The notes beneath the pieces are model-generated. The model was not told the DNA's origin. It saw only the letters and a list, made by a program, of their open reading frames with translations, and made no database searches. A stretch of 64,000 bases of DNA from an uncultured Verrucomicrobiae bacterium. GTDB lineage: Bacteria > Chlamydiota > Chlamydiia > Chlamydiales > Rhabdochlamydiaceae. This document shows, in pieces, positions 2,180-8,212 of this stretch. The first letter of the stretch is position 1. Each line of letters begins with the position of its first letter. The stretch is taken from positions 442,075 through 506,074 of the forward strand of contig CAWFUG010000009.1 of assembly GCA_963818965.1 (NCBI GenBank). Direction: 5' to 3'. A program made the translations under genes and the position numbers.

Positions 2180-3803
2180 CGGGCTCTCTCATTTTATTTT
2201 TTAGGACAGCGCCGATAAACTCTCGAAAAAGGGGATGGGGCTCGGCGGGTTTTGATTTGAATTCGGGATGGAACTGGACCCCGAGCATCCACGGATGGTC
2301 TTTGATCTCAGCGATCTCGCAGAGATCTCCTTCTTCGAAAATGCCCGATAGGATGAGTCCGTTGTCTTCGCAGGCTTGTTTGTAGGTGTTATTGAATTCG
2401 AAGCGATGGCGGTGGCGCTCTGAGATCTTATTTGTGCCATACGCCAGCTCTGCTTTTGTGCCGGGAAGGACGCGACAAGAAAAGGCGCCGAGGCGCATCG
2501 TGCCTCCGAGTTCCTCAACCCCTCTTTGTTCACTGAGCAAAGAGATGATCGGGTGGGAAGTCGCAGGATCGATTTCTGTCGAGTTCGCATCGTGTAGGTC
2601 GAGCACGTGTCTCGCGAATTCGACACAGAGCACTTGCATGCCTAGACACAGACCAAAATAGGGGATGTTATTTTCCCTGCAGTACTTCGCCGTCATGATC
2701 TTGCCCATCCAGCCCCGCTCTCCAAAGCCTCCAGGGACGAGATAGCCATCACAGCCACCGATCACCTTTTCGACAGAACCGAGATCGAGTACTTTATCCG
2801 ATTCGAATCGGCGGATTTCGATCTCGACTTGATTAGCGAGAGCCCCATGGTAGAGGGCCTCGAAGACAGATTTATAGGCATCTTGATGCTGTAAATACTT
2901 ACCGACGATCCCGATGACCACTTTCCCCTTGGGATTTTTTAAAGTGTGGAGCATCGCTTCCCATTTTAAGAGGTCAGCGCGCTGGGAAGGGAGATTCAGG
3001 AGCTGGCAGATTTTATCGTCTAAGTGTTGGCGGTGTAGATTGAGGGGCACCTCGTAGATGCAAGGGACGTCGGGGATATCGATAACGCCTTCTTTAGAGA
3101 CGCTGCAAAAGAGACTGATCTTATCCTTGAGCTCTTCAGAAAGGCTCTCTTCACAACGACAGAGGATCAGATTGGGGATGATCCCGATACTGCGCAATGT
3201 CTGTACAGAGTGTTGGGTGGGTTTTGTCTTGAGCTCTCCTGCCGCTTTTAGAAAGGGGACATAGGTCAGGTGGATGTTGAGACAATCGGAGGGTCTTTCA
3301 TGGCAGAATTGACGAATCGCTTCAAAGAAGGGCAAAGATTCGATATCGCCGACGGTCCCGCCGATCTCGACAAGAACGACATCAGTCTGGGGCATTTGTC
3401 GTGAGCAAGCGATGATCCTCTGTTTGATCTCATCGGTGACATGGGGGATGACTTGCACTGTCTTACCGAGATAATCCCCACGCCGTTCCGATTTGATGAC
3501 AGCATCATAGATCTGGCCCGAAGTGGCATTAGAAAGGCGGGAAAGAGGGGTATTGGTCAGGCGGTGGTAATGGCCTAAATCCAAGTCGGTTTCCGCTCCA
3601 TCGTCTGTGACGTAGACCTCTCCATGCTGGAAGGGGTTCATCGTGCCTGGATCGACGTTGAGGTAAGGATCGAGCTTTAACATCGCAATTTTGAGGCCTC
3701 TGGACTCTAAAAGCATCGCGATGGAAGCTGAGGTAAGCCCCTTGCCCAGGGAAGAGACCACGCCCCCGCTAATAAAAATATATTTTGTCGATTGCATGCA
3801 CAA
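2157..3803 (-). CDS. pyrG: CTP synthase
   Basis: GGVVSSLGKG, KLDPYLNVDPGTMNPFQHGEV, GLCLGMQ, ERHRHR, QFHPEF. Confidence 0.97.
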   Translation of the reverse strand: MCMQSTKYIFISGGVVSSLGKGLTSASIAMLLESRGLKIAMLKLDPYLNVDPGTMNPFQHGEVYVTDDGAETDLDLGHYHRLTNTPLSRLSNATSGQIYDAVIKSERRGDYLGKTVQVIPHVTDEIKQRIIACSRQMPQTDVVLVEIGGTVGDIESLPFFEAIRQFCHERPSDCLNIHLTYVPFLKAAGELKTKPTQHSVQTLRSIGIIPNLILCRCEESLSEELKDKISLFCSVSKEGVIDIPDVPCIYEVPLNLHRQHLDDKICQLLNLPSQRADLLKWEAMLHTLKNPKGKVVIGIVGKYLQHQDAYKSVFEALYHGALANQVEIEIRRFESDKVLDLGSVEKVIGGCDGYLVPGGFGERGWMGKIMTAKYCRENNIPYFGLCLGMQVLCVEFARHVLDLHDANSTEIDPATSHPIISLLSEQRGVEELGGTMRLGAFSCRVLPGTKAELAYGTNKISERHRHRFEFNNTYKQACEDNGLILSGIFEEGDLCEIAEIKDHPWMLGVQFHPEFKSKPAEPHPLFREFIGAVLKNKMREPVGKNCRS

Positions 3804-6183: not shown

Positions 6184-6420
6184 TTAATACGAAGCCTTGT
6201 AAAAAACGAACTCAGTGCTTTTGTTTTCCTTTAATGAAGTGTATAGAATTTCTTCATCTTTTCCTTTTGGGATTTTTATTACTCCGAAATTAGGATCAAA
6301 AAAGAAATTTTGTCCTTTGTTTTTGAAGTAGACGCAAGTATGGCCTTCATCTTTTTTTGGATCGCCCTGCTTGAAAATATAGAATCCATTTGGTTGGATT
6401 TTGCTTTGTTGCTGAAATTC
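6184..6420 (-). pseudogene. C-terminal remnant of a YopT/C58-like cysteine protease domain
   Basis: Open frame with no start codon, hand-translated as ...PNGFYIFKQGDPKKDEGHTCVYFKNKGQNFFFDPNFGVIKIP...KASY*; GH and FFDPNFG motifs present. Confidence 0.55.
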
Positions 6421-6495
6421 ACCACAGAGCCTTGGGAAGGGGGGCGTCTCGGTCCTTAATTTTATACTCTACCCCTTCCATCATCTAGATGTAAC

Positions 6496-6524
6496 TTGGG
6501 TCAAAATCGGATCCAATCTATAAT
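6496..6524 (+). promoter_or_regulatory. Sigma70/sigma66-type promoter for the IS110 left-end RNA and transposase
   Basis: Perfect TATAAT at 6519-6524; TTGGGT 17 bp upstream at 6496-6501. Confidence 0.55.
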
Positions 6525-6528
6525 TCCT

Positions 6529-6670
6529 CCTCGTAATGTAGAGGCCGAGCTATCATTGGCGCTTGTAAGCCCGGCACAGAGAATGGCACGCAAAAGGTCA
6601 CGTAAGCATCGCTGGTGAGATCGTAAGATCATCCCGTTTAGGAGAATGTTGGCTTAACACCTTTTGCACA
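6529..6670 (+). ncRNA. Putative bridge/seek RNA of the IS110 element
   Basis: 5' hairpin CCTC/GAGG; two parallel loops CCCG-g-CACAGAG-AATG (6570-6585) and CCCG-t-TTAGGAG-AATG (6633-6648); stem GCAAAAGGT/ACCTTTTGC (6590-6598/6659-6667). Confidence 0.7.
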
Positions 6671-6694
6671 TTGCACTTAACCCAAGGAATTTTC

Positions 6695-8052
6695 ATGAAC
6701 ACCGAAATCGTGAATCAATCATCATCCATTAAAATTATCAATCCGAACGCTGCAGGAATAGACATAGGGGCTTCCTCCCATTTCGTTGCAGTGCCCGAAA
6801 ACAGAAGTAAAGAGTTTGTTAAAGAATTTGGGTGCTTTACCCCAGATATTGAAAACATGATTACATGGTTAAGGGAATGCAAAATCAAAACAATAGTTAT
6901 GGAATCGACTGGATCCTATTGGATACCGGTCTTTGAAATGCTGGATCAAGCCGGATTTGAGGTAAAATTGGTAGATGCCCACCATGTAAAGAATGTAAGA
7001 GGACGCAAGTCAGATGTAATAGACTGTCAGTGGCTTCAACAATTGCACACCCACGGCCTACTCTCGGCAGCTTTCCGTCCAGAAAATGAGATAGTAGAGC
7101 TAAGAAGTTTCCTCAGACAAAGGTCCATGCTCATTGAAACAGCCTCTATGCATATCCAACACATGCAAAAGGCACTCGTTCAAATGAACCTACACCTGAA
7201 CAATGTGATAAGTGACATCACTGGAGCAACAGGTATAGCTATAATAAGAGCGATTGTGTCAGGGGAAAGAAACCTCGATAATTTGGCAAAACTAAGAGAC
7301 CCTCGGTGTAAACAACCTGAATCTGTAATCAGGAAATCTCTTCAAGGCAACTACCGACCAGAACACCTATTTGCCTTAAAACAAGCCCTTGAAGCCTACG
7401 ACTTTTTCCAAAAAAAAATCGCCGAATGCGACAACGAGATAAAAAAAAACTCGAAGTGCTCTCCCCAATAAAAGAGACACCCTCACTGACAAAAAAGCCA
7501 AAAAAGCTAAAAAAATACGAATACGCTTTTAATGTAGCCGACCACCTAAAACAGCTCATAGGAACGGACCTAACAACGGTACCCGGGATAGACGTAAGCA
7601 CTGCTCTGAAGTTAATCTCGGAAATAGGAACAAATATAAGAAAATGGCCAACAGAAAAACACTTCTGTGCCTGGCTAGGATTATGTCCTGGCACCAGAAT
7701 ATCCGGAGGAAGGCGAATTAGTAGCCACACCTCGCATTGTACCAATAAGGCAGCGATTGCATTGAGAATGGCAGCAAGCTCATTATACAAAAGCAAAACA
7801 GCACTTGGAGCTCACTTAAGACGCATGAAAGCACGTATGGGTCCTGTTGAAGCAGTGACGGCAACAGCCCACAAAATGGCAAGGGCCCTTTATCAGATGA
7901 TACTGCGAAAAGAAGACTTTAGAGAAGCTGGCTCAGACTTTTACGATAAACTACACCAAGACAAAACACTGAAATTTTTGAAGAAGAGAGCCGCCTCCAT
8001 GGGATATGTCCTAACTGAAATGGAAAAAATGAAAAGCGCTGTGCACCAATAA
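6695..8052 (+). CDS. IS110 family transposase/recombinase, split by a -1 frameshift at the A9 run 7441-7449
   Basis: GIDIG, MESTG and KSDVID (DEDD RuvC-like domain) in ORF1; C-terminal domain with WLGLCPGTRISGG in ORF2; RBS AAGGA before ATG 6695. Confidence 0.88.
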
Positions 8053-8075
8053 CTTAGCTTGAAGTTACTTAGGAG

Positions 8076-8212
8076 AGGGGAAACCACAGAGAGGAAATTC
8101 ATATTAAAAAGTTTCCTCTCTGTGGTTTTTCCTCTCTGTGGTGAAATTGCATCTATTCAGAATGGAATAATGGGGAGCTAGATTAGCTCCTCATGGATGA
8201 TGCAACAACGCC
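8076..8212. repeat. Right part of the family A MITE interrupted by IS110
   Basis: CCACAGAGAGG/CCTCTCTGTGG arms; TGCATCTATTCAGAATGGAAT shared with 33337-33360; ends in ATGCAACAACGCC. Confidence 0.8.

Follow-up and report, generated by a model that had tools for sequence, protein, structure and literature searches.

The window (the whole stretch of 64,000 nucleotides analysed here) contains an insertion sequence of the IS110 family, with a non-coding left end, a recombinase gene divided between two reading frames and a short non-coding right end (Table 1). The left end carries a predicted guide RNA made of two loop modules, one of which contains CACAGAG, the sequence found directly to the left of the element, while the other contains UUAGGAG, the last 7 nt of the element itself. 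These strings, together with a TATAAT hexamer, a 9-bp stem and the parallel build of the two modules, had been named in an original prediction made on this DNA. On reading the sequence we confirmed all of them with their coordinates, including the identity of CACAGAG with the left flank (6423-6429) and of TTAGGAG with the right end (8069-8075).

Table 1. Features of the insertion sequence and of its target site (positions are those of the window)
Feature	Position	Strand	Details
Target site, left half, in left arm of palindromic repeat	6415..6429	+	Shared flank of both copies
Left target plus core, CACAGAG	6423-6429	+	Directly left of element
IS110-family insertion sequence	6430..8075	+	1,646 bp; left non-coding end 265 nt, right 23 nt
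Terminal part of left end	6430..6518	+	Right-donor sequence CCTTGGGAAG..., inverted repeat, terminator-like hairpin, weak -35-like TTGGGT
Inverted repeat GGAAGGGG / CCCCTTCC	6435-6442 / 6472-6479		Left-end start; from sequence
Terminator-like hairpin with T run	6440-6457		Upstream of presumed RNA promoter
Weak -35-like TTGGGT	6496-6501	+	3 of 6 consensus matches
-10 hexamer TATAAT, perfect	6519..6524	+	17 nt after TTGGGT
Predicted bridge RNA body	6533..6674	+	~140 nt; closing stem GUAAUGU 6533-6539 / ACAUUGC 6668-6674
Target-binding loop module (predicted)	6544..6587	+	Outer stem GCCG 6544-6547 / UGGC 6584-6587
Target loop, 5' side	6548-6556		AGCUAUCAU (9 nt)
Right-target guide CUAUC, candidate	6550..6554	+	Assigned by register
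Target module, inner stem-loop	6557-6573		99.1% paired (19 relatives)
Target loop, 3' side	6574-6583		G-CACAGAG-AA (10 nt)
Left-target guide CACAGAG (predicted)	6575..6581	+	Equals top strand of left flank plus core AG
Donor-binding module (predicted)	6590..6667	+	9-bp stem GCAAAAGGT 6590-6598 / ACCTTTTGC 6659-6667
Donor module, inner stem-loop	6613-6636		
Donor module, 3' side	6637-6645		U-UUAGGAG-A
Left-donor guide UUAGGAG (predicted)	6638..6644	+	Equals element's last 7 nt (8069-8075)
Recombinase ORF1, DEDD/RuvC-like domain	6695..7471	+	PF01548 (DEDD_Tnp_IS110), 4.8e-21
A9 run	7441..7449	+	Heptamer A_AAA_AAC 7444-7450 in ORF1 frame; site of needed -1 shift
Recombinase ORF2, -1 frame, Tnp domain (Transposase_20)	7450..8052 (open frame listed 7426-8052)	+	PF02371, 9.5e-13
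Right end of element, TTAGGAG	8069..8075	+	Left donor plus core; sequence and copy comparison
Right half of target	8076..8150	+	Right flank AGGGGAAACC... running into rest of palindromic repeat

A search of the own genome revealed two copies of the 1,646-bp element, one in the window (contig C9) and one on contig C2, 100% identical over 6430-8075 and with different outer flanks. Both are preceded by ..TTCACCACAGAG, with sequences diverging further outward, and they are followed by AGGGGAAACC in the window and by ATGGAAAACC on C2. The target without an insertion, CACCACAGAGAGGGGAAACC, is present at 25 places in the genome, so that the limits of the element are independently supported by the identical C2 copy and by the intact target sites. 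The consensus of these 25 sites can be folded into an imperfect hairpin, whose 5' arm contains the insertion point; two identical copies, 25 intact sites and a hairpin consensus together indicate that the element inserted precisely into a palindromic repeat. Flank and element end share GAG only. The hairpin repeats of an environmental chlamydia are in this way marked by the element as an insertion target. Positions 8073-8150 of the window have more than 40 further genomic matches at 80-96% identity, and an Rfam search of the repeat (8060-8150) returned only weak microRNA look-alikes, which we judged to be chance. As to abundance, ACCACAGAGAGG of the hairpin repeat family was counted 279 times genome-wide, the exact intact site 25 times and the IS copies only twice.

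Related loci, 129 in number, were gathered via the N-terminal ORF. Species-representative genomes yielded 49 loci confirmed from 113 pattern matches, mostly in Acidobacteriota and also in Chloroflexota, Planctomycetota, Bacteroidota and two Chlamydiae; from metagenomes we took the best 80 of 277 confirmed loci (427 matches). An RNA profile built on 28 aligned left ends (A1) detected the RNA in 123 of 131 sources, the 8 not matched including truncated loci, and 116 sources could be parsed for both loops. On the own genome the profile matches the two IS copies only. Within the phylum, a protein relative with E <= 1e-20 is held by 18 of 301 sampled genomes, this one included. Two relatives at 55-57% identity, L179 in genome G111 (element 600-2406, gene 693-2150, RNA 2203-2330) and L181 in genome G271 (element about 622-2460), have this two-loop RNA on the downstream side of the gene, and its guides follow the same logic.

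Some of these loci showed particular arrangements. The right flanks of the acidobacterial relatives L032, L033, L064, L098 and L129 lie within tandem 8-nt arrays (e.g. gcacagag-acacagag), and so the left and right halves of their targets are near-repeats of each other. Locus L042 is a head-to-tail array of related elements with RNA matches at 171-314, 1795-1939 and 3439-3573, in which one element's target guide, TTAGGAG, is identical to the right end of the element next to it (..GTTACTTAGGAG|), as if the sibling end had been targeted. In two copies of G111, the recombinase gene is interrupted at its 3' end by an insertion of 90 nt (L165, about 2843-2934; also in L178), which is bounded by 14-bp terminal inverted repeats, CTAGTGCTCTGTCA...TGACAGAGCACTAG, and resembles a miniature transposable element.

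The recombinase gene and its A9 run

The recombinase belongs to NCBIfam NF033542, 'IS110 family RNA-guided transposase', with 176 bits against a cut-off of 140. Inspection of the translation of ORF2, whose stop codon is at 8050-8052, revealed GLCPGTRISGG, which fits the motif G--P----SG described for these transposases (PMC11187229). The two ORFs are joined at a run of nine A residues. In the frame of ORF1 the context is T-A9-C, with codons ATA AAA AAA AAC; ORF1 ends 10 codons past the run, and in the -1 frame 203 codons can be read up to 8052. A second A9 run, encoding in-frame lysines, lies 31 nt upstream of the slippery run at 7410-7418 and is also present in relative L080.

We examined the same site in 19 distinct chlamydia-like loci. 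T-A9-C/G is found in 16 of them; there the 0 frame runs into a stop after 4-30 codons, and the -1 frame can be read for 154-211 codons (92 in the damaged L066). The gene is read straight through in the other three, namely L080, L085 (which has A10) and L096, and acidobacterial relatives have a single uninterrupted recombinase ORF. The frame break is present in both copies of the own genome and in all three copies of genome G245.

The guides could be real and the element nevertheless a dead relic, its gene broken by an ordinary frameshift and nothing made from it, as ORF1 stops at 7471 with the Tnp domain in another frame and L066 bears additional damage. We consider this unlikely. Random decay would hit varied places, and the same break with its long open -1 frame recurs in the 16 relatives although these have diverged to about 72-79% protein identity; it is moreover common to the two copies here and to the three dispersed G245 copies, and elements that spread while out of frame argue that the protein is still made. 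The frameshift, which the original prediction proposed to repair, is conserved in the clade.

Because the A9 site is conserved in this way, the break is probably a programmed -1 frameshift, transcriptional slippage or a homopolymer switch rather than decay, and the recombinase would be made by slippage on the run. The length of nine A also fits transcriptional slippage, and no stimulatory structure was identified at the run. The conserved split suggests a translational or transcriptional throttling, which is relevant to the expression of such enzymes as tools. The transposases of IS1 and IS3 are made by -1 frameshifting on A_AAA_AAC / A_AAA_AAG, and the same heptamer stands here, in the 0 frame, where the catalytic N-terminal ORF gives way to a C-terminal ORF in the -1 frame. 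To our knowledge, -1 frameshifting has not been reported for the IS110 family. A literature search found no paper linking IS110 with programmed frameshifting, and 'IS110' is absent from the accessible parts of the recoding review PMC5009743.

A conserved two-loop fold in the left end

Between the terminus and the RNA the left end holds an inverted repeat and a terminator-like hairpin. A comparable pair, GGGGAAGGGG...CCCCTTCC, was seen in the left end of L066, and the repeat and hairpin of 6435-6479 may serve as an insulator or a protein site. The TATAAT at 6519-6524 is presumed to be the promoter of both the guide RNA and the recombinase mRNA. In the alignment, TAnnnT-like hexamers occupy the equivalent place in relatives. 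A consensus promoter scan of the left end returned no site at the scan threshold, because the -35 matches only 3 of 6 positions.

Pairing was counted in an alignment of 19 chlamydia-like relatives (A2), and RNAalifold finds the same stems family-wide. The closing stem (6533-6539 / 6668-6674) shows 91% pairing and has 3 pairs with both bases changed, and it too is recovered family-wide. For the outer stem of the target module (6544-6547 / 6584-6587), pairing is 90.5%, with both bases changed in 2 pairs. In the donor module, the 9-bp stem (6590-6598 / 6659-6667) proposed by the original prediction is borne out, with 97.7% pairing and 4 compensatory pairs, and the inner stem-loop (6613-6636) is 99.4% paired with 4 pairs changed. 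Over the whole fold model, pairing holds in 93.4% of cells as compared to ~35-41% with slid partners, and 16 pairs have both bases changed. The two modules are parallel, each reading UGG...CCG, one base, a 7-mer, A and AUG. The single-sequence fold was not more stable than shuffles (z = +0.33), and a search of the left end against Rfam matched no family.

Other parts of the fold first proposed fared differently. A small 5' hairpin was paired in 70.3% against 68.1% in shuffles, and the outer stem GCTAT/ATGGC of the first module in only 55.8% across the 19 relatives. The target loop, described as very asymmetric, has 9 and 10 nt on its two sides when closed by the conserved outer stem. The outer stem of the second module (AGCAU 6605-6609 / AUGUU 6646-6650) holds as far as pairing is concerned, at 88.4%, but shows no compensatory change; an alternative at 6602-6607 / 6652-6658, paired in 76.4%, brought no improvement. 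As neither candidate is well supported, the donor loop may be truly lopsided.

Two non-canonical pairs, U35.G55 and U96.G121, are invariant in 19/19 relatives. Such U.G/G.U pairs would be A.C mismatches on the other strand, and their invariance fits an RNA of plus-strand sense. The same observation bears on the idea that the 7-mers act as DNA, that is, as subterminal copies of end and target recognized by a protein or through pairing of single-stranded DNA, as in IS200/IS605, for which the DNA-level inverted repeats at 6435-6442 / 6472-6479 could speak. We regard this as highly improbable, since the stems are kept through pairs that exist only in the RNA sense, a -10 hexamer is kept just upstream, and the protein family is experimentally RNA-guided (PMC11208160, PMC11187229).

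Predicted guides for the target and for the element's own end

Since the CACAGAG guide has the top-strand sequence of the left flank and core, it would pair with the bottom strand. We searched for the loop-1 7-mer in a span of 260 nt upstream of the RNA in the 96 parsed loci that have at least 120 nt of upstream DNA. An exact match was found in 73 of the 96, with 29 distinct 7-mers, while guides paired with the wrong loci gave 51 matches in 2,688 (1.9%). Covariation of guide and flank across homologous left ends had been named as a check in the original prediction, and the loop-1 7-mer does covary with the left flank. Exact matches lie nearly always 58-96 nt before the model start. Of the 23 loci that lacked an exact match, allowing a single mismatch recovers the guide 57-102 nt upstream in 18 and near 200 nt in 2, leaving 3 with no match. 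Among the 79 loci with enough downstream DNA, the loop-2 7-mer is identical to the element's right end in 73.

Junctions located by the guide itself are partly circular, and for this reason genomes with several copies were used to fix the ends by copy comparison. In G245, three copies have three unrelated flanks, each ending in CACAGAG before the common sequence. Five copies in G195 follow ..CGCAGAG| and have the guide CGCAGAG. In G111, the guide is TTATGAG in two copies that follow ..TTATGAG| and TTATAAG in a third that follows ..TTATAAG|. The loop-2 7-mer equals the right end also in relatives whose ends were set by copy comparison.

The same data define the core. AG is found in both guides in 113 of 116 loci, and the two guides have only 2 nt in common in 70/116 and 3 nt in 31/116. 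The shared core is 2 nt, AG, and the 3-nt GAG read as core in the original prediction is a peculiarity of this element.

Chance frequencies were taken from genome counts on both strands of 2.24 Mb (903 for CACAGAG, 256 for TTAGGAG). That the 7-mers are mere coincidences in an ordinary structured 5' leader is hardly conceivable: CACAGAG is over-represented in the genome (903 vs 273 expected), but the chance of finding each 7-mer in a 165-nt stretch is ~0.03 (CACAGAG) and ~0.01 (TTAGGAG), jointly ~3e-4 before the same-position requirement, and covariation extends over 29 guide variants against a 1.9% background.

The earlier proposal of an RNA-guided IS110 recombinase, whose left-end RNA has guides for the target and for its own end, is supported by the 73/96 and 73/79 matches, and we hold with high confidence that the left end encodes a bridge (seek) RNA giving both the insertion site and the element's own end.

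Right-side guides could not be identified in the original prediction. For the target this has changed: a probable guide, CUAUC (6550-6554), is located on the 5' side of the target loop, suggested by weaker evidence than that for the 7-mers. The 9 nt of this side are variable except for a terminal CAY. Among 89 unique pairs, position 7 (C) stands opposite the core G in 92%, and the complementarity of positions 6 to 2 with right-flank bases 1 to 5 exceeds that of shuffles (Z up to 5.1). Mean pairing was 3.98 of 6 as compared to 3.29 in shuffles (sd 0.10; maximum 3.60 in 2,000), with 2.5 or less in all other registers. As the tandem 8-nt targets of many acidobacterial loci could mimic this signal, we also examined the 40 pairs without tandem-repeat targets, where pairing was 3.60 vs 3.09, a value reached by 2 of 2,000 shuffles. 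The two sides of the target loop are not mutually complementary (2.86 of 6 or less). At the C2 site, with C6554 opposite the core G, U6553-A, A6552-T, U6551.G and C6550-G would leave the flank bases A-T-G-G all paired with one G.U, and at the window site, where these bases are A-G-G-G, there would be one mismatch (A opposite G).

On the donor side, no second guide matching the start of the left end was found. In a register test, the 5' side of this loop gave no anti-diagonal against that start and showed only a C across from the core G. When all columns of the RNA were scanned against flank and end positions, hundreds of 'significant' cells arose from the two-clade structure, and the scan was discarded. 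CCCAAGG (6681-6687), which complements the first 7 nt of the element, was considered as a donor guide; because L066 lacks it and it lies partly over the ribosome-binding site, we take it as accidental. In the loci inspected by eye for handshake guides, the two bases after each 7-mer differ from the first two of the opposite partner.

The mechanism of the family, RNA-guided recombination, is published (PMC11208160, PMC11208158, PMC11187229). In the present element, transcription would probably be driven by the TATAAT at 6519, with the RNA of 6533-6674 forming the leader of the recombinase mRNA. On the model of IS621, its DEDD/serine recombinase would hold both duplexes through the RNA and strand exchange would take place at the shared core, the outcome being an element placed in a hairpin repeat without target duplication.

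Comparison with published IS110 and IS1111 systems

We found here the features that characterize bridge RNAs, namely the end of a DEDD plus Tnp element, target and donor loops, covariation of guide and target, and a core dinucleotide shared by the guides. With respect to two opposite-strand guides per loop, the second guide has a weak statistical signal in the target loop and was not found in the donor loop. The element is largely an expected member of the RNA-guided IS110 family with modest variant features, and it extends the principle little: that IS110 and IS1111 elements recombine under RNA guidance has been established since 2024, and the NCBI family name already reads 'RNA-guided transposase'.

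For IS621 of E. coli we relied on the layout given in the published text and on the element sequence in Supplementary Table 1 (PMC11208160). There, the RNA gene occupies a long left end that precedes a recombinase of 326 aa with DEDD and Tnp domains (PMC11208160, PMC11208158), the core is CT in coding orientation, and sense guides (left target, right end) are on the 5' sides of the loops with antisense guides on the 3' sides (PMC11208160). The element described here resembles IS621 in having a left-end RNA gene before a DEDD plus Tnp recombinase, two internal-loop modules for target and donor, guides that include a shared 2-nt core, a repetitive hairpin as target and no target duplication. It differs in that the sense guides are on the 3' sides, with AG, the reverse complement of CT, as core, so that the polarity of guide and core is inverted relative to the gene; the IS621 arrangement, in which the 5' loop side pairs with the bottom strand on the left and the 3' side with the top strand on the right, is not found. 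Read on the other strand, the RNA-DNA geometry is that of IS621, with a 5' guide ending at the core and a 3' guide covering CT plus 5 nt. Other differences are a recombinase of ~450 aa that needs a -1 shift, a donor loop in which a second guide was looked for and not found, and a promoter that appears to be internal rather than formed at a junction.

In IS1111 elements the non-coding region is downstream of the transposase gene, the transposase has 330-350 aa and there are subterminal inverted repeats of 7-17 bp. As described by Siddiquee et al. (PMC11187229), the seekRNAs of ISEc11, ISPa11 and ISKpn4 have the top-strand match 5' of the bottom-strand match, the reverse of the IS110 example ISEc21. 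The RNA described here agrees with the IS1111 order, as the segment that would pair with the top strand comes first, 5' of the one that would pair with the bottom strand. Thus the guide on the 3' strand, which the original prediction considered unusual, is indeed opposite to IS621; its order is not a new principle because it is already published for IS1111 seekRNAs. Unlike IS1111, the RNA lies upstream of the gene (in relatives L179 and L181 it is downstream, as in IS1111), the transposase has ~450 aa, and no long subterminal inverted repeats between the two ends were found by eye. Two IS110-family elements of Pseudomonas putida, ISPpu9 and ISPpu10, insert into repetitive extragenic palindromes (PMC12288879; bioRxiv 10.64898/2026.03.19.712850); judged by the brief descriptions of them, the palindromic-repeat target is alike, and host, repeat family and RNA differ.

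Proteins of this clade are present in the phylogeny table of Durrant (PMC11208160) without an ISfinder name. The loop-2 motif was not found in 12 million characters of the Durrant supplements, a search that covered cells over 400 characters only in part. A 2026 preprint describes 86 covariance models and 32,190 bridge RNAs, many deviating from IS621 (bioRxiv 10.64898/2026.10.21.760802), and the present RNA family may already be among these models.

A more specific reading, which we offer only tentatively and would not bet on, is that these elements form an undescribed clade with a left-end two-loop RNA of IS1111-type order, a single 7-nt donor guide and a chlamydia-associated throttling of the recombinase by a -1 shift or slip on A_AAA_AAC (A9). 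If so, the A9 site would be the first recoding signal in the IS110 family. The donor loop seems to need one short guide only. Because close relatives carry the RNA downstream with the same guide logic, the clade, shared by soil Acidobacteriota and environmental chlamydiae and of opposite polarity to IS621, spans both published layouts and bears on the relation between them; if the tentative reading is true, the guide logic, kept with the RNA before or after the gene, would mean that the clade records an RNA 'translocation' between the ends.
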